Of a stretch of DNA of 64,000 nt, positions 26,842-38,109 are shown one piece after another. The stretch comes from an uncultured Gemmatimonadaceae bacterium. Lineage in GTDB: Bacteria; Gemmatimonadota; Gemmatimonadetes; Gemmatimonadales; Gemmatimonadaceae. Position 1 is the first letter of the stretch. Every line of letters begins with the position of its first letter. The stretch lies in the NCBI GenBank assembly GCA_963781585.1, contig CAWAGQ010000005.1, positions 256,001-320,000 on the forward strand. Reading direction: 5' to 3'. The position numbers and the translations under genes were made by a program. The notes under the pieces were generated by a model. That model did no database searches, was not told the DNA's origin, and saw only the letters and a program-made list of their open reading frames with translations.

Positions 26842-27120
26842 TCACCAGCTGATGGTGCCCTTCTTGCTGGTGTCGACGTCTTCCCCCGATCCACTCTTGA
26901 ACAGGAAAGCCTGGAGGTTGCGCGTCAGGAAGGCCCGTGCCTGCGGATCCATCACATTGAGTCCGTAGTGGTTGATCAGCATGGTCTGCTGCCGCAACCA
27001 ATCTCCCCAACATTGCTGACAGATTTCGGCGACGATGCGAGCCCCTATCTGACCGGGGAAGGGCGGGCGCTCAAAGCCCGCGCGCGTCTGCCCGCAATGC
27101 GAGCAAGTGACTTCCGGCAT
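26842..27120 (-). CDS. yggX: Fe(II)-trafficking/oxidative damage protection protein
   Basis: PPFPGQIGARI..EI..QCWGDWL.QQTMLINHYGLNVMDPQARAFL..FLF. Confidence 0.85.
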   Translation of the reverse strand: MPEVTCSHCGQTRAGFERPPFPGQIGARIVAEICQQCWGDWLRQQTMLINHYGLNVMDPQARAFLTRNLQAFLFKSGSGEDVDTSKKGTISW

Positions 27121-27177: not shown

Positions 27178-27954
27178 TCAAGTCACCGGCTGCTGCCGCC
27201 GCCGGCTCGACCCGGCGTGAAGTATCTGCGCGAGGCCCAGCACCGAGAGCGCCCGGAGATACAGCCAGCCCACATCGAACTCGAACCATCGAGCCGCGAA
27301 ACGCGCTGATCGGGGGTCGGCGTGGTGGTTGTTGTGCAGCTCCTCACCGCCGAGCCAGATAGCAATCGGAGCGATGTTCCGGCTCTCGTCCTTGAGCTGG
27401 AAGTTCCGGTATCCCACGGCATGGCCGAATCCGTTGATCACGCCCGCCGCCCAGAACGGAATCCAGATCATTTGAATGCCCCAGACGACGCCCCCGATCA
27501 GAATTCCGAACAGGTATACATCGGCGGCCAGCATCACGATGACCCCAAGCCAGTTGAGCCTCGTAAACACATTCCGCTCGAGCCAGTCGTTGGGAGTTCC
27601 GCGACCGTACTTCTCGAGAATCCCCGGCTGGCGCACCGTGCGTCGATAGTAGAACGCCCCCTTCAGGACGATGTTCCGCAGGCCTTCGAGCAGAGGACTG
27701 TGCGGATCTCCTTCACGATCCGCGAAAGCATGGTGCTTTCGATGGCAGGCCACCCACTCCTTGGTCACGATGGCAGTAGTGAGCCATAGCCAGACCCGCA
27801 TCGGCACGGCGGCAAGCCACCGGAGCCTCACGGCACGATGCGTCTGAGAACGATGCAGAAAAAGCGTAACGCACACGTTCGTGAGATGACCCGCGATGAC
27901 GATGAAGACGACTGGCTTCCACCACGAGGCCGACCAGCTGCCAAACTCTGGCAT
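27178..27954 (-). CDS. desA: Delta-9 acyl-CoA/fatty acid desaturase
   Basis: His boxes HRSQTH, HRKHH and HNNHH; GDPHSP; WAAGVINGFGH. Confidence 0.92.
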   Translation of the reverse strand: MPEFGSWSASWWKPVVFIVIAGHLTNVCVTLFLHRSQTHRAVRLRWLAAVPMRVWLWLTTAIVTKEWVACHRKHHAFADREGDPHSPLLEGLRNIVLKGAFYYRRTVRQPGILEKYGRGTPNDWLERNVFTRLNWLGVIVMLAADVYLFGILIGGVVWGIQMIWIPFWAAGVINGFGHAVGYRNFQLKDESRNIAPIAIWLGGEELHNNHHADPRSARFAARWFEFDVGWLYLRALSVLGLAQILHAGSSRRRQQPVT

Positions 27955-29235: not shown

Positions 29236-30153
29236 TCACGAGTCGCCCATTCGGGCGCGCACGTCCTCTCGCGCCTCGCCGTATTGACGCATCCACCCCT
29301 CGCTGCGCGCGAACACCTCGTCCCTTCCATAGTCCACCGAGAGGACATGGCCGCGCCCTTGCAGCCAGTGGAATTCTTTGGTGGCTGCGCCGAGGCGTTC
29401 GAATACCCGCTCGGCATCCCGTCGCAGAATCCGGTTGTCCTGCTGCGACTGAAGCATGAGCGTCGGCGCTCGGACGGCCGGAGCAGCATCCCACGCCATC
29501 CGCGTAATCAACGACAATTCCCCCAGCAATCGTGTCGGTGTGAACCCGAACCCGAGTGAGTTTGCGCGCTCAACCGGATCCCAGATCGATTCGGTGGTGG
29601 AGGAACGAACGTACGGCGCGATCCACGACAGGAACCGGCTGCGTCGTGCAATGCGCGACACCTTGGGCATCATTGTGAGATAGGGCGCCAGAAGCACGAG
29701 CGAGGGTAGCTCAGGCGCATCCGCAGCAAGGAGCACGGCTAGCGCGCCGCCCATAGACTGTCCAAGAACGGTCACGACGGGGTGGGTCCGACACAGCTCC
29801 CGATATGCCGATCGCGTCGCGTCGAGCCACGCCGTGGCAGTGCCCGACGCAAGGTCGCGAAGAGATCGACCGTGCCCCGGTAGCCGCGGGACGCGAACGG
29901 TCCAGCCGCGCTGATGGAGGAAATGGCCAAGGCTCCGCACCGACTGCGGGGTGTCGCCAAATCCGTGGAGAATGAGTACCGCCATCGGTCCGCCCTCAAG
30001 CGCGATCGCCCCGGCCCCGCGCACAGTTCCGTCCGTGGCCACGGGTAGCCGGGAGGCAACAAGGGCTTCGACCCGACGGGCTGCGATGTAGCGGAGAGCG
30101 ACAACCGCAGCCCCGATTCCTCCGGCGACTGCCACGGGGATGAGCGGGGGCAT
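29236..30153 (-). CDS. Carboxylesterase (alpha/beta hydrolase)
   Basis: LHGFGDTP, LPGHG, GQSMGG nucleophile, late Asp and His; N-terminal hydrophobic anchor. Confidence 0.88.
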   Translation of the reverse strand: MPPLIPVAVAGGIGAAVVALRYIAARRVEALVASRLPVATDGTVRGAGAIALEGGPMAVLILHGFGDTPQSVRSLGHFLHQRGWTVRVPRLPGHGRSLRDLASGTATAWLDATRSAYRELCRTHPVVTVLGQSMGGALAVLLAADAPELPSLVLLAPYLTMMPKVSRIARRSRFLSWIAPYVRSSTTESIWDPVERANSLGFGFTPTRLLGELSLITRMAWDAAPAVRAPTLMLQSQQDNRILRRDAERVFERLGAATKEFHWLQGRGHVLSVDYGRDEVFARSEGWMRQYGEAREDVRARMGDS

Positions 30154-30312
30154 TGGCCGGCCTACTCGCAACTTCGCTTCACTACGCGACCTCCGGTCAC
30201 TGCCGCCGTGTCCGCAGAGTGATTCGTTGGTCCCGCCGCAGCGCTGGTCTGGACAGCCCAGCGGCCTGAATGTTGCTTTACGGACCGCATAGCGGGCTCG
30301 ACTGCTTATGGA

Positions 30313-32133
30313 ATGTCACCATCCTCCCCTGACGATCAACCGAGCAATTTCCTCGCCGTTGTCATTGTAGGGAATGACGCGCTCGTCGAAGCCCTTCCCG
30401 CACGACCAATCCAGTTCGCGCTCGCCTGCCGCGCCATCGGATTCGATGTGGTGCTTCCGGGATCGTGGGGTGATGAGCTCGTGGCGGCGGCAACACTCCG
30501 AATTCTGGAGACGCGCGACCACGCGCCTGCCGTATTCTGTGCGTGCCCGCATGTGCGGGACCGTCTGCTCTCTGGCGGTACCGAGCTCGGTTCGCTGCTC
30601 ATTGCTCCCGTTGCACCTCCAGTCGCCGCTGCTCGTTACGCGCGGGCTGCCTATTCGGGTCGTGCTCTTCATCTGACATATATCGGGGACTGCCCCGCCG
30701 CGAGCGCGCCGGACTTCGACACCCGGCACAAGACGCGCGAGTTTCTGGCGCTGCTGGGGTCGCGTGGCATCGACCCGCTCGAACAACCGGCAGTGTTCGA
30801 CGACATCCTCCCACCCGATCGCAGGCGACACTTCTCGCTGCCGGGTGGGTGCCCATCACCACAGGCTCTCTGGCAGCGTGCCAACGAGCGCGTCCTGGTC
30901 GAACTCGAAGGGGTGGACCTGACGCTGGATCTCGCCCAGCATCTCCTGACTCGGCAGCCTGCCCTTGTTGATCTCGCATCGGCACTCGGCTGCGCCTGCA
31001 GCGGAGTGACTGAACTGACGACTGGGCTGAGCGCGCGTGTCGCAGTCACGTCGCTGGAACCACCGAGATCCGCCAACCCGGTGATTGATCCGGGTCTCTT
31101 GAAACCATCCGACTTTCTGGTTCGCGAAGAGGATCTCGCCGAGGCAGGCAGTCGAAACCCGGCCTCGGATCCGGGCACGACCATGCAATTGAACTCGGGG
31201 GGGCGCGGCGTGTCGGCACGGCCAGGTGATACCGGGCTCCGACCCAATCCGCCGCATCGCCCGATCGCAATCACTCCTGTGGAAGCACTTCACGAAGACC
31301 TCGCAGAAGGGGGCTCGCATCGAGCTCGGCGCGGCAGGAGTCTGCCAGAGACCACCTCGCAAGAAGTGAAGATCCGCGCAGGCGTCGGCCGAACAGGGCA
31401 GGGCATGGCCCCCCCGACCGTGGCGGACGCCCCGTTCTCGCCAGAAGAACAGGCCTTCCCCGTTCGCGTTGAGGCCGAGCACAACGTCGAGCGATCAGTG
31501 CCGTCGCCGATCGAGTCGTCGCGACCGGTCGACCAGCTCCCGGAACCGGCACCGGGTAGCCGACGGAAACCTGCGGCGGGAGAGGCGATCAGAGAGCGCG
31601 GGGGAGCAGTGCTCCGGATCTCGACAGCCGGCTTCCCGACCGTGCGCCGTTCAGAGCCGCTGGTGAGTCGACTTCCGCGTGCATACATGGGCCGCCGGCC
31701 GGGCACAGCCCAGCACCAGGGCGGACACGCACCGCCAGCACCTGAGAGCGCGCAACCGAGGGAGTCACCGATGGCGGGCCGCGAGGATCGTGAGATCCCC
31801 ATGATACCTGCAGTCGAGCGCACTGCGCCGGCCATATCGACTTCAGCATCGGGACCTGTTTCGCCGGGACACCGCGACGAAGCGTGGATTTCCGCGACCG
31901 GGCGCGCCCCGGCACGACCGACGAGCGGCAGGTCAACGCACGTACCCACCACCGGTCAGGTTGTCGACCCCCTTAGTGGAGCGCAGCAACGCCTCCGCGC
32001 ACGATTGTCTGCTCGCCCATTACGGAAGACTGCGCGTGCTGGGCGTCCTGCCGTCTGGAAGACTCTGGTGATCGTCGTGGGCGCGCTGCTGCTGATAGCC
32101 CTCGTCGGGGCTTTGTGGGAGCGTCTGGCCTGA
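30313..32133 (+). CDS. [FeFe]-hydrogenase large-subunit/Nar1-like domain protein with Pro-rich linker and C-terminal TM
   Basis: GFDVV...GDELVA, FCACP (P1), VAPPVAAARY, YIGDCP (P2), SLPGG and VDLASALGCACSG (P3-like), in the order of Fe_hyd_lg_C; TM TLVIVVGALLLIALVGALW. Confidence 0.7.
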   Translation: MSPSSPDDQPSNFLAVVIVGNDALVEALPARPIQFALACRAIGFDVVLPGSWGDELVAAATLRILETRDHAPAVFCACPHVRDRLLSGGTELGSLLIAPVAPPVAAARYARAAYSGRALHLTYIGDCPAASAPDFDTRHKTREFLALLGSRGIDPLEQPAVFDDILPPDRRRHFSLPGGCPSPQALWQRANERVLVELEGVDLTLDLAQHLLTRQPALVDLASALGCACSGVTELTTGLSARVAVTSLEPPRSANPVIDPGLLKPSDFLVREEDLAEAGSRNPASDPGTTMQLNSGGRGVSARPGDTGLRPNPPHRPIAITPVEALHEDLAEGGSHRARRGRSLPETTSQEVKIRAGVGRTGQGMAPPTVADAPFSPEEQAFPVRVEAEHNVERSVPSPIESSRPVDQLPEPAPGSRRKPAAGEAIRERGGAVLRISTAGFPTVRRSEPLVSRLPRAYMGRRPGTAQHQGGHAPPAPESAQPRESPMAGREDREIPMIPAVERTAPAISTSASGPVSPGHRDEAWISATGRAPARPTSGRSTHVPTTGQVVDPLSGAQQRLRARLSARPLRKTARAGRPAVWKTLVIVVGALLLIALVGALWERLA

Positions 32134-33010: not shown

Positions 33011-34202
33011 CTAACCTAACGCGGCTGCGAACCGACCGAGGCCCTCCGCGAGGTCACCTCTGGTCGCGACAAGCGGCGGCAGCAGGCGGATCGTATGGTT
33101 GCCGGCCGAAACCAGCAGGAGGCCCTCGTCACGCGCGCGCGCGATAATATCGGCGGCCGGCTCGTTCACGTCCACGCCCCAGATGTATCCGATGCCGCGA
33201 ACAGCGCGAATCCGTCCCGAGCGATCGGAGAGCGCGCGGAGTTCGCTGCCCAGCCACTCACCGCTCGCCCGCACCTGCTCCAGGAATGCGGGATCCGCGA
33301 TCCGGCCGATGACGTGCAGCGCGATACTCGAGACAAACGGCCCACCGCCAAATGTCGTGCCGTGATCGCCGGACTGTATGGCCGCCGCGATTTCCTCCGA
33401 CATGAGGATCGCGCCCATTGGCAGACCGCCCGCGATCGGTTTTGCCAGAGTGAGCACGTCCGGCTCCACATTCAGGCCCTCGATACGCGAACAGCGTGCC
33501 CGTGCGACCCAGGCCGCATTGAATCTCGTCAAGAATGAGGGCGATATGACGAGCGCGCGTCAACGCTCGCAGTTCGCGGAGGAATCCGCCGTCCAGCACG
33601 CGCACACCACCCTCTCCCTGGACCGGTTCGACAATGAGACCCGCGGTATTCTCACAATCCAGGATGGAGTCCAGTTGCTCCAGGTCCCGCTCCGCGATCG
33701 AAATCCCCCCCGCAAGCGGCCGGAATGGCGCGCGATACGCTGGCCGATCTGTCGCTGCAAGCGTGGCGAACAATCGCCCGTGAAACGCACCGCGCAGGGC
33801 AATGATCTCGTGCTTGGCGGGACCACCTCCCTGAGTTCGTGCCCACCTACGAACGAACTTGAAGGCCCCCTCGTTCGCCTCAGCACCGGAGTTGCAGAAG
33901 AACACCTTTGACGCAAACGACAACTCGACAAGGCGCTCGGCCAACCGTTCTCCCGGCGACGTACGAAAGAGATTGGACACGTGTACCAGATTGTCTGCGG
34001 CCGCGTGCAGCGCCTCCCGGAGACCATGATCGGAGTAGCCGAGTGCATTGACCGCAATGCCGCTCGTGAAGTCGATGTACGATTTTCCATCTGCATCGTA
34101 GAGCGTCACGCCCTCCCCACGCACGATTTCCATGGGTGGACGCTTGTAGACGGGGAGCAGGGCACCGGTGACTGGCGGCGCTGACGAAGCTTGGGATGTC
34201 AT
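33011..34202 (-). CDS. argD: Acetylornithine aminotransferase; 1-nt frameshift near 33482
   Basis: DFTSGIAVNALG, FCNSGAEANE, EPVQGEGG and DEIQCGLGRTG, then PDVLTLAKP..HGTTFGG in the adjacent frame. Confidence 0.9.
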
Positions 34203-34206
34203 GGTG

Positions 34207-34965
34207 TCAAACCGTCGATGGTGAATGCGTGACGGCGGTGCCACGCGACCGATCCTGCAGCGACCACACATCTCCGATGCGAACACAGGGCACGCCACCT
34301 GCCACCGCACGCCGCGCGGCCTCCAACTTGGCGGCCATGCCGCCACGCACCGCGCCATCGAGCAGCGATCCGATGGCATCCACCTCCACGCTCGCCAGCG
34401 GTGTCCCAGCAGCATCGAGTACGCCAGCCACGTCCACCACGAGATGCAGCTCGTCCGCCGAGATCGACTCGGCAATCGCCGCTGCTGCATCGTCTCCGTT
34501 GACGTTCAATCCGCCACCGCCAATAACGTCTCGCCCGACAGGGGAAATCACGGGAACGAATCCCCGACCGAGGAGCACGTCCAGCAGACAGCGATCAGCT
34601 GGCTTCGGACTGCCGACCGCACCCAGTCGCCCACCGTCGTAGAGGACCGACGGCAGCAGTCCGCCGTCCTCCCCCGACAGCCCGACCGCGGGCACGCCTA
34701 CGGCCAGCAGCTGACTGACCAGCCGCTTGTTGATCAGCCCGGACAGAACCATTCGCACGATGTCGATGTCTTCAGGACTTGTGTACCGACGGCCTCCCAC
34801 GAAACGTGTCTCGCGACCGAGCCGCCGCTGCATTTCGGTCAGCTCCTCCCCACCTCCATGAACCACGCACAATCGCCATCCGGGGTCCTTGCTCAGGGTC
34901 GCCAGAACACCCGGCAGAGCAGGATCCGCCTGGACGCGTCCGCCGATCTTCACAACGCGGATCAC
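34207..34965 (-). CDS. argB: Acetylglutamate kinase
   Basis: VVKIGG, VHGGG, GRRYT, NVNGD, DVAGV and GGMAAKLEAA motifs. Confidence 0.92.
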   Translation of the reverse strand: MIRVVKIGGRVQADPALPGVLATLSKDPGWRLCVVHGGGEELTEMQRRLGRETRFVGGRRYTSPEDIDIVRMVLSGLINKRLVSQLLAVGVPAVGLSGEDGGLLPSVLYDGGRLGAVGSPKPADRCLLDVLLGRGFVPVISPVGRDVIGGGGLNVNGDDAAAAIAESISADELHLVVDVAGVLDAAGTPLASVEVDAIGSLLDGAVRGGMAAKLEAARRAVAGGVPCVRIGDVWSLQDRSRGTAVTHSPSTV

Positions 34966-36859: not shown

Positions 36860-38109
36860 ATGCGGACCATCGTGCTCGCGTATTCGGGTGGGCTGGATAC
36901 ATCAATCATCGTCCCGTGGTTGCGCGATCACCACGACGCAGACGTCGTCTGCGTGGCAGCGGATGTAGGACAGGGTGCCGACGAACTCCGAGGGATTCGA
37001 GAAAAGGCCCTGCGCTCTGGCGCAGCTGAGTGCTACGTGGAGGACCTACGTCAGGAGTTCATCGAGTCTTTCGCCTTCCCAACGCTTCGCGCAGGAGCCG
37101 TATACGGTCGCAAGTACCTTCTCGGGACATCGATGGCCCGTCCCATCATCGCGCGCCGACAGGTCGAAGTGGCGCGCGCGGTCGGCGCCAGCGCATTGGC
37201 GCACGGGTGCACGGGAAAAGGAAACGACCAGGTGAGGTTCGAACTCACATACATGGCGTTCGCGCCGGAACTCGAGGTCATTGCCCCATGGCGCGAGTGG
37301 AACATTCGCAGCCGGGAGGATGCCCTCGCCTATGCCTCGGAAAAGGGGATTCCCGTCACGGCCTCCGCGAAGAAGATCTACTCGCGCGATCGCAATCTCT
37401 GGCACATTTCGCACGAAGGTGGAGTGCTCGAAGACCCGAATGAACCGCCCCGGAAGATCTCTTCCTGCTGACCGTTGACCCGGCCGACGCACCCGACCAC
37501 CCGGAGCTGGTCACCATCGGGTTTTCACAGGGCACGCCCGTGTCGGTGAACGGACACGTCCTCGATCCGGTCGAGCTTGTGACCACCCTGAACACGTTGG
37601 CTGGCCGACACGGAGTGGGTCGGGCTGACATCGTCGAGGATCGCCTCGTCGGGATGAAGTCTCGCGGCGTATACGAGACACCTGGCGGCACGCTGCTCTA
37701 CACAGCACTCGCCGAACTTGAAATGCTCGTGCTGGACCGCCGCTCCCTCGCTGCGAAGGACCTCATCGCACCACGCTATGCTGACGTCGTCTACGAGGGC
37801 CGCTGGTGGAGCAGCGAACGGGAAGCCTACGATGCGTTCGTTACCAAGCTCCAGGAGTTGGTGAGCGGTTCCGTTACGCTGAAGTTGTTCAAGGGTGGTG
37901 TCGCAGTGGCTGGGCGCGAAAGCGAGAACGCGCTCTACGACGAACGATTCGTCACGTTCGGCGAGGACGACGTATATCAGCAGAGTGATGCGGCTGGTTT
38001 CATCCGCCTTTACGGGTTGCCGGGTCGTGTTCGCGCGCTGAAAGAGCAGGAGCGAAGTGGGACGCACGAAGGGTCGACGGCGTCTCCTCCAGCACTGGCG
38101 CTCACGTGA
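36860..38109 (+). CDS. argG: Argininosuccinate synthase; 1-nt frameshift near 37450
   Basis: [24 protein letters not shown] and [13 protein letters not shown], continuing in another frame ([24 protein letters not shown]). The shift falls in a C-run. Confidence 0.93.

Follow-up and report, generated by a model that had tools for sequence, protein, structure and literature searches.

A trimmed [FeFe]-hydrogenase-like domain with conserved cysteines on a predicted membrane tether in apparently aerobic Gemmatimonadaceae

Introduction

Hydrogenase-like proteins without H2 chemistry are known in eukaryotes (Nar1/CIAO3), and the debated bacterial 'sensory' [FeFe]-hydrogenases still carry the H-cluster. 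Here we analyse an open reading frame (ORF) of 606 residues (30313..32133, + strand) in a 64,000-nucleotide stretch of DNA, the window, which comprises positions 256,001 to 320,000 of contig CAWAGQ010000005.1 (assembly GCA_963781585.1) from an uncultured soil bacterium of the Gemmatimonadaceae. The N-terminal part of its product is a shortened version of the hydrogenase H-domain, followed by a long disordered tail that ends in a predicted transmembrane helix. Our reading, which we hold tentatively, is that the whole descends from a sensory-type [FeFe]-hydrogenase and is no longer catalytic, being an iron-sulfur (Fe-S) receptor whose enzymatic output gave way to a tether carrying a docking motif.

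The sensory proteins of the HydS type (groups C and D) combine, as given in parts of PMC13104023, an H-cluster with N- and C-terminal [4Fe-4S] clusters, the C-terminal one being tied to a 'Per-' domain that is taken here as PAS. Theirs is the closest H-domain type by profile, and the P1 motif of the window protein is like the sensory 'xxCPxVV' and unlike 'TSCCPxW'. Common ancestry with them runs through a GGDEF-coupled sister group, which keeps a Cx2Cx4Cx16C FeS domain. The window protein differs in having no N-terminal Fer4, its H-like domain starting from about residue 10, no C-terminal four-Cys cluster, there being no Cys beyond residue 229, and no PAS, kinase or GGDEF domain; a disordered tail and membrane anchor stand in place of the output. 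The absence of ferredoxin, PAS and output domains, remarked in a first-pass annotation made from the sequence alone, thus agrees with our searches, in which no Fer4 was found and no part of the tail matched Pfam. No H-cluster is expected, because the P2 Lys/Glu are deleted and P3 is reduced to CxC.

With Nar1/NARFL/CIAO3 the window protein shares a hydrogenase-like fold in an aerobe, conserved cysteines that appear suited to Fe-S, and no expected [2Fe]H. It has none of the second N-terminal cluster site, the full-length H-domain or the eukaryotic cytosolic iron-sulfur assembly (CIA) pathway of Nar1: its first Cys, C39, already lies inside the H-like domain. The two proteins are not specifically related, and no Nar1 chain stood among the structural matches listed by Foldseek or VIA-align. 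The term 'Nar1-like' of the first-pass annotation can be retained as a functional analogy only, the nearest relatives being sensory and GGDEF-coupled proteins. Two of the Nar1 clusters are rapidly destroyed by O2, according to parts of PMC12621388. The archaeal ultraminimal group E is, in the sections of PMC11216029 that treat it, a sister clade to sensory group C with a purified enzyme of 33 kDa. Group E and the window protein are both stripped-down H-domains; group E binds the H-cluster and makes H2, whereas the window domain is without the motifs needed.

H-domain fold of the N-terminal region

The trimmed H-domain-like core spans residues 10–250 (30340..31062, + strand) and was recognised in the AlphaFold2 (AF2) model, by Foldseek and VIA-align, and by a profile match to HydA1. 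The AF2 model of the N-terminal domain, built from 111 sequences, has a predicted local distance difference test (pLDDT) value of 91.8 and a predicted template-modelling (pTM) score of 0.88. Foldseek gave 73 matches in the PDB at E ≤ 0.001, and all the matches listed were [FeFe]-hydrogenases with a probability of 1.00; the best was 8a6t_A (E = 1.1e-8), and query-normalised TM-scores lay between 0.56 and 0.68. Using VIA-align, we obtained Z-scores of 16.1–14.4 with 217–235 of the 250 residues aligned (root-mean-square deviation (rmsd) 3.3–4.1) and 73 chains at Z ≥ 8. The 50 matches listed were again all [FeFe]-hydrogenases, with Z ~ 16 to CpI, TmHydA and CbA5H. Residues 10..250 of the model align with residues 220..537 of CpI (Z 15.5–16.0, 230–233 residues, rmsd 3.3–3.6).

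The full-length protein gave no match when compared with Pfam, NCBIfam and the PDB sequences. For residues 1–250 the only Pfam match was Fe_hyd_lg_C (PF02906), at E = 0.08 and 13 bits, below the gathering cut-off of 22.1 bits; the same family was found at E ≤ 0.1 in 56 of 60 relatives and above the cut-off in 28 of them. A profile of 45 N-domains (alignment A2) matched 29 PDB sequences at E ≤ 10, all of them Fe-hydrogenases, the best being Chlamydomonas HydA1 (E = 2.5e-6). An earlier profile that included the tail was dropped in favour of this one, since it matched only low-complexity ribosomal and Tra1 chains. The motifs from which the H-domain had first been proposed are all present (GFDVV at 43–47, FCACP at 75–79, VAPPVAAAR at 100–108, YIGDCP at 123–128, PGG at 177–179 and LGCACSG at 225–231), and the fold is confirmed by Foldseek, VIA-align and the family profile. 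The N-terminal domain is, with near certainty, a homologue of the H-domain.

In the full-length AF2 model the domain continues into an ordered C-terminal extension, residues 249–282 (31057..31158, + strand), which contains the motif LEPPRSxxPVID. Block means of pLDDT are 89–93 up to residue 270 and about 70 for residues 271–280. The EPPR motif occurs in 204 of 232 relatives and is also found in the GGDEF-coupled ones.

Conserved cysteines and altered catalytic motifs

The cysteines are conserved among homologues, as the first-pass annotation supposed. Among 231 relatives C76 is kept in 219, C78 in 229 (the other two have gaps), C127 in 230, C227 in all 231 and C229 in 230, so that these five are near-invariant. 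C39 is found in 199 and D220 in 228 of the same sequences, and C180 (PGGC) is unconserved (48 of 231).

The P1-like motif FCACP (residues 75–79; 30535..30549, + strand) was placed by hidden Markov model (HMM) alignment to 'TSCCP' of HydA1 and by hhalign to the sensory 'TTCPSVV'. The HMM alignment sets the family's 'C-A-C-P' opposite the 'S-C-C-P' of HydA1: C78 aligns with the cluster-ligand Cys of P1, A77 falls at the position of the proton-relay Cys, and C76 is an extra Cys specific to the family. At position 77 the relatives have A (117 of 231), V (59), S (39) or T (12), and Cys lies outside the five commonest residues. In the P2-like motif YIGDCP (residues 123–128; 30679..30696, + strand), hhalign pairs 'yvG-CP-A' with 'fiGpCiakk..' and sets C127 opposite the Cys of the sensory 'GPCIAKK'. 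These two alignments put C78 and C127 in the P1 and P2 ligand positions. Beyond C127 an 8-residue gap in the family deletes the P2 Lys/Glu (KKxE) segment, where sensory or catalytic relatives have 'AKKGEA' or 'TAKKFEA'; the loss of KKxE, seen at first pass, is therefore real in the alignment. In [FeFe]-hydrogenases this Lys and Glu contact the di-iron site.

The P3-like motif LGCACSG (residues 225–231; 30985..31005, + strand) was recognised by its conservation and in an extended hhalign alignment, and its CxC lies in the loop after the strand ending in D220. The pattern here is 'D-x6-C-x-C-x-G' as against 'E-x3-C-x3-C-x2-GGGQP' in true enzymes: the region reads DLASALGCACSG, with CxC and no GGGQP, and the phylum's true enzymes have EVMTCPGGCVGGGGQP. 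The altered Cys spacing reported before was thus seen again. The extended alignment places C227/C229 at or beside the second P3 Cys (sensory 'EVLCCNGC') with low confidence, and the CxC does not map one-to-one by sequence onto the two P3 cysteines. All three Cys-bearing loops follow β strands in the AF2 model (E73–75, E118–124 and E217–220), which is the arrangement in real [FeFe]-hydrogenases, and we infer that their cysteines are clustered in space. From the sequence it seems likely that an Fe-S cluster would be bound through C78, C127 and C227/C229, together with C76.

Evidence against hydrogenase activity

Compared with the catalytic enzymes CpI, HydA1, TmHydA and CbA5H, the domain has the same fold (Z ~ 16, 227–235 residues aligned) and retains the P1 and P2 ligand cysteines. 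It differs from them in its length (241 residues against 318 in the aligned span of CpI) and in lacking the relay Cys, the P2 Lys/Glu, a canonical P3 and maturases in the bin. The host bin (5.7 Mb, 93.5% complete, 7.2% contamination) gave no match to HydG, and its best matches to HydF (81 bits against a cut-off of 325.6) and HydE (32 bits against 254.6) are sub-threshold; the absence of hydEFG that had been noted for the window thus extends to the bin. The bin encodes two heme-copper oxidase subunit I (COX1) genes, in keeping with the apparent aerobe of the first-pass annotation.

True hydrogenases, taken as PF02906 matches at E ≤ 1e-25, were absent from all 93 sampled genomes of the host's own family and from all 166 of the sister family. 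The only ones came from one distant Gemmatimonadota family, in which 5 of 13 genomes encode them. The six complete genes of that distant family score 316–323 bits to PF02906, and a HydS-like gene (two Fer4, H-domain, Cx2Cx4Cx16C, and histidine kinase or PAS) adjoins a hydrogenase in four of these five genomes.

A cryptic and more minimal [FeFe]-hydrogenase, matured by another route, could be imagined on the model of the 33-kDa archaeal group E enzymes, which become active once they have been matured semisynthetically. By itself the lack of maturases is no proof against it, since most archaea with [FeFe]-hydrogenases are without HydEFG, including some whose enzymes are active (both points from parts of PMC11216029); for this reason the motif losses outweigh the maturases in our assessment. 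It is the motifs that speak most directly against such an enzyme, with A, V, S or T at the relay-Cys position, the P2 Lys/Glu segment deleted and a P3 CxC in place of the GGGQP-type sequence of the phylum's true enzymes, and the reduced span relative to CpI and the aerobic oxidases of the host bin point the same way. We regard a hidden hydrogenase as extremely unlikely, and the protein as very probably non-catalytic.

Kinship with sensory and GGDEF-coupled proteins

By profile comparison the H-domain is closer to sensory than to catalytic types. With reference sets drawn from Gemmatimonadota only (5 sensory and 6 catalytic sequences), hhalign matched the family to sensory H-domains with Prob 97.5, E = 6.9e-12 and score 90.8, and to catalytic ones with Prob 63.9, E = 6.6e-5 and score 42.9. 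The GGDEF type behaves similarly (sensory: Prob 99.4, E = 3e-21; catalytic: Prob 95.1, E = 3e-8). An IQ-TREE phylogeny of 56 H-domains (34 family, 2 paralogues, 9 GGDEF type, 5 sensory and 6 catalytic, the truncated catalytic L117 being omitted) separates the catalytic and sensory sequences from a group in which the GGDEF type is sister to the family and its paralogues, with support of 100/99; the tree is unrooted and is flagged for the meeting of long branches.

The GGDEF type was recognised in ten relatives outside the host's own family, with lengths of 496–557 residues; seven belong to the sister family, and the other three to two more families of the class. Their layout is an H-like domain, EPPR..PVVD, Cx2Cx4Cx16C and GGDEF, with an N-terminal ferredoxin motif in three. 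Pfam identified Fe_hyd_lg_C (36–48 bits), the FeS domain PF04060 and GGDEF in all six GGDEF-type relatives compared with it, and Fer4 in three of the six. To these proteins (Fer4–Fe_hyd_lg_C–FeS–GGDEF) the window protein is 31–39% identical over the H-like domain; it falls in the same tree group and has the EPPR..PVVD sequence in common with them. Relatives were detected in 30 of 93 own-family genomes and 152 of 166 sister-family genomes, identity to the latter being 31–39% over the H-like domain. The hydrogenase-like diguanylate cyclase layout has been verified in ten sequences only, although a relative is present in most of the sister family.

The two types are the reverse of each other. The GGDEF type has a diguanylate-cyclase output and accessory Fe-S domains, and among its nine members in alignment A2 the P3 cysteines are absent from all nine and the P1 Cys from all but one; the family of the window protein has kept the H-site cysteines. 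The simplest history suggested by the sequences starts from a HydS-like sensor, from which a Gemmatimonadota lineage with two branches would descend. One branch would have kept the accessory clusters and the GGDEF output and lost the H-site cysteines; the other, which includes the window gene, would have kept the H-site cysteines and lost the accessory clusters and the output.

The fold of the GGDEF type also raises the alternative that the window domain is a cofactor-less or Zn-binding module, using the H-like fold as a tethered protein-interaction or dimerisation domain. Four-Cys sites can bind Zn, and a sister group which keeps the fold after losing its P3 and P1 cysteines implies that the fold is useful without an H-site cluster. 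Yet the cysteines of the window family are placed in or close to the three loops which supply the cubane ligands of real hydrogenases, they retain the ancestral P1 and P2 ligand positions, and they are essentially invariant in 231 sequences that are only 40–50% identical overall. On this evidence we think a module of that kind improbable.

Disordered tail and membrane anchor

Beyond the ordered extension lies a disordered Pro/Arg/Ala-rich linker, residues 283–577 (31159..32043, + strand), in which the full-length AF2 model (83 sequences) has a pLDDT of about 31–58 per 10-residue block. The composition of residues 251–577 is 13.5% P, 12.5% R and 12.2% A. The Pro/Arg-rich disorder of the first-pass annotation is borne out by the low pLDDT and the composition; its length is about 295 residues, not the ~350 given there.

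The tail's one strongly conserved linear motif is motif B, LPRAYMGRR (residues 454–462; 31672..31698, + strand), with the consensus G-[RK]-x-LPRAY-[VIM]-A-[KR]-RR. P455, R456 and R462 are at least 90% conserved in 83 full-length relatives, and the loose pattern [LVI]PR[AST][YF] is found in 187 of 232. The region of the motif has low pLDDT in the full-length model. A complex prediction for residues 1–262 with the stretch around motif B (residues 418–475) scored 0.01, which we weigh neither way. Motif A, PIAITPVEAL (residues 317–326; 31261..31290, + strand), is matched by 25 of 232 relatives; its pattern R-x-P-I-A-I-T-P-x-x-A-L is largely confined to the closest relatives, and among the short relatives some stop just past it.

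A C-terminal transmembrane helix is predicted at residues 578–605 (32044..32127, + strand; hydropathy 2.72, AF2 helix with pLDDT 89–95), in agreement with the single one read from the sequence before. Five basic residues precede the hydrophobic segment (578–606) and only ERLA follows it. The protein is thus predicted to be tail-anchored, with a single helix at the extreme C-terminus and the rest in the cytoplasm. The ends of the 232 relatives vary: 108 are tail-anchored, 41 have a transmembrane segment and an extension, 28 end in a ...PERMGDGP peptide and 55 in neither. In 74 complete genome-derived orthologues a transmembrane segment is present in 45, of which 29 are tail-anchored. Because of this variation, membrane tethering is common but not constant: the tether proposed at first pass stands as a prediction for the window protein and falls as a constant of the family. 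The occurrence of other C-terminal peptides points to localisation as the role of the tail's end.

The subgroup without a transmembrane segment (P0036, P0042, P0043 and 25 others) has a conserved C-terminal ...A-G-A-P-E-R-M-G-D-G-P, which looks like an alternative means of localising the tail end, and an extended motif before LPRAY, R-S-P-A-A-G-I-R-S-I-Q-x2-I-P.

A single redox-capable domain on a long flexible linker with a membrane anchor could also be a tethered one-cluster electron carrier, the Fe-S domain swinging between a cytoplasmic donor and a membrane acceptor. Tethered cytochromes offer an analogy in principle, and the linker keeps its length (median protein length of 583 residues in the tail-anchored class). 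Such a carrier is hard to reconcile with the relatives that have no transmembrane segment (83 of 232), with the want of an adjoining redox enzyme gene in the window or beside the paralogue described below, and with a conserved basic linear motif that would be superfluous in a passive tether. We consider it very unlikely.

Extent of the family and second copies in the bin

A word-indexed search returned 391 relatives, and an exhaustive phmmer search of 1.84 billion representatives gave 452 clusters at E ≤ 1e-3, 293 of them at E ≤ 1e-30. Almost all of the 452 representative clusters are labelled Gemmatimonadota, and where the sources name the organism of a relative it is always one of the Gemmatimonadaceae. 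In the 150 phmmer matches listed, the match starts within the first ~45 residues of each relative. Products are named 'hypothetical', 'iron only hydrogenase large subunit' or '[Fe-Fe] hydrogenase large subunit C-terminal domain-containing protein'. A relative is encoded at 233 loci in GTDB species genomes, of which 80 were kept; 79 of these carry a Gemmatimonad- label, and the exception is a 2.4-kb contig. Distant GGDEF-type relatives included, 197 of 401 sampled Gemmatimonadota genomes have a member. The ESM Atlas gave Gemmatimonadota PF02906 clusters and one lead, below 0.9, to a cluster without a common Pfam family. Full-text searches of the literature found no paper on the family or on GGDEF-coupled hydrogenase-like proteins, though sequences of this kind may be listed in the classification tables of PMC11216029. 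The family is already partly labelled as Fe_hyd_lg_C-containing in databases, and hydrogenase-like proteins without hydrogenase chemistry are a known category.

The ratio of non-synonymous to synonymous substitution rates (dN/dS), measured against an 88%-identical copy on contig C8 of the bin, comes to 0.17 in the domain, 0.30 in the transmembrane segment and 0.47 in the tail, which evolves fast. The two genes differ by only five gap positions and the frame is kept. These values indicate that the whole frame is translated; ORF 30313..32133 is real and a member of a conserved family.

Contigs C5 (446 kb, which carries the window) and C8 (434 kb) are colinear over ~420 kb at ~87% nucleotide identity (77 high-scoring segment pairs, each ≥ 500 bp and together 364 kb). 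One or the other is probably a co-binned contig from a related population, consistent with the 7.2% contamination of the bin, and the colinearity makes it probable that the second copy is no paralogue from the same cell. The bin also holds a third, distant paralogue (G000:C4:802001-804337) of 778 residues and 36–40% identity. It has the same plan, but with an acidic disordered tail, a transmembrane segment at 701–731 and ~47 residues after it; its Cys motifs are NCP, RCPGA and CGCIC. It adjoins dap/lysC/asd genes, aroA and cmk, a context that is functionally uninformative.

Gene neighbourhood

The gene appears to be monocistronic, with a divergent gene upstream and a convergent one downstream. 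The divergent neighbour encodes an alpha/beta-hydrolase (Hydrolase_4 in Pfam; 29236..30171, − strand) and serves as a synteny anchor, being conserved in 66 of 73 loci with at least 1 kb of upstream sequence. Downstream are a convergent nitroreductase-family gene and then argD, argB and argC. In argD and in argG (33011-34490, − strand, and 36860-38109, + strand) a single frameshift leaves two ORFs, which match consecutive parts of the same enzyme. Both cases are either assembly indels or pseudogenes, and ORF calls in this bin therefore need care. Scans of the window gene for a sigma-70 promoter and an intrinsic terminator found none.

In 48 of 80 related loci a divergent gene for a Cys-free Crp-family regulator (cNMP_binding and HTH_Crp_2; for example L082:5247-5990, − strand) lies between the hydrolase and the gene, and a ThiF-rhodanese gene takes that position in one or more of the other loci; in the window there is nothing there. 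A TTGAT-N4-ATCAA (FNR/CRP) box did not stand out in 48 intergenic regions, the best candidates having 3–5 mismatches and shuffled sequences giving similar results. The Crp/Fnr-family neighbour was dropped as a partner, being absent from the window, with no orthologue in the bin and no consensus box.

Two neighbours had been singled out by the first-pass annotation. The yggX-like iron-trafficking gene (PF04362, 86 bits; 26887-27114, − strand), 3.2 kb upstream of the hydrogenase-like gene, is present as described. It lies directly downstream of a gene for a 258-residue membrane protein (27178-27954, − strand) with the His boxes HRSQTH, HRKHH and HNNHH; by these motifs we take it to be desaturase-like, though it has no Pfam match at E ≤ 0.01, and 14 of 80 related loci have it no more than 8 kb from the hydrogenase-like gene. 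A functional link of either neighbour to the gene was not borne out.

The yggX-like gene bears on a further alternative, an Fe-S carrier or scaffold like Nar1/CIAO3, in which a labile H-site cluster would be handed to membrane clients and the tail motif would recruit clients or assembly factors. The hydrogenase-like fold, the conserved Cys set and the loss of catalytic features all fit it, and Nar1 is likewise a hydrogenase-like Fe-S protein without [2Fe]H (parts of PMC12621388). Against it, the protein begins at its H-like domain, with no second cluster site of the Nar1 type and no other Pfam match. Its nearest relatives are sensory or signalling proteins and not assembly factors, no Fe-S assembly gene adjoins it in the window, in locus L014 or beside the paralogue, and a presence in 30 of 93 own-family genomes would be odd for a core assembly factor. 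We see little likelihood in this alternative.

Discussion

In the reading we favour, residues 1–282 are a trimmed H-domain that keeps cysteines at or near the three loops which hold the [4Fe-4S] part of the H-cluster. With these cysteines kept and the needs of the di-iron site and of proton transfer lost, the most likely cofactor would be a single Fe-S cluster accessible to solvent; it is most simply taken as a cubane, the CxC leaving its nuclearity open. Like other Fe-S sensors, the protein would signal O2, redox or iron status through its cluster, according to whether the cluster is there or lost and whether it is oxidised or reduced. No enzymatic output is left. A ~295-residue disordered linker with the basic docking motif LPRAYxxRR and a C-terminal transmembrane helix would hold the domain at the cytoplasmic face of the membrane, and signalling would proceed by binding or releasing a putative partner. 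The first-pass annotation had left sensor and scaffold side by side; the sensory ancestry favours a sensor. That it acts as one and signals through the tail motif is possible, if somewhat doubtful. We infer cluster binding, the sensed signal and partner docking from the features described above.

Several observations weigh against this reading. The strongest is that the GGDEF-coupled relatives keep the fold without the H-site cysteines. Their H-like fold thus has a task for which no H-site cluster is required, and this tells against a sensor that works through a cluster. The CxC is an unusual pair for a cubane, and 83 of 232 relatives have no transmembrane segment. The genomic context is uninformative, a monocistronic gene beside arg genes and a paralogue beside dap genes having no tie to a pathway. 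The Crp-family regulator that accompanies many relatives is absent from the window and has no orthologue in the bin, where only Crp-family genes of 22–25% identity were found.

A more specific version, which we regard as rather unlikely, would make the family an independently arisen bacterial counterpart of Nar1. The HydS-like H2 sensor of an anaerobic ancestor would have become, in aerobic Gemmatimonadota, an O2- or redox-labile Fe-S switch without an output domain, signalling via LPRAYxxRR on its disordered membrane tether of ~300 residues; a cytoplasmic partner might, for instance, be captured or released at the membrane. The sister lineage would then represent an intermediate stage, with the fold still wired to the synthesis of cyclic di-GMP.

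For annotation, metagenomic surveys of H2 metabolism that are based on PF02906 should leave the family and its GGDEF-type cousins out of their hydrogenase counts. In a widespread family of aerobes, the H-domain has been cut to a Cys-bearing core of ~250 residues and joined to a disordered tether, not to an output domain. Should the core prove to bind an O2-sensitive cluster, the behaviour of the H-site cubane without the di-iron site could be studied in it as a small and tractable model, and, if our reading is true, the family would be an example of sensor evolution through the loss of output.

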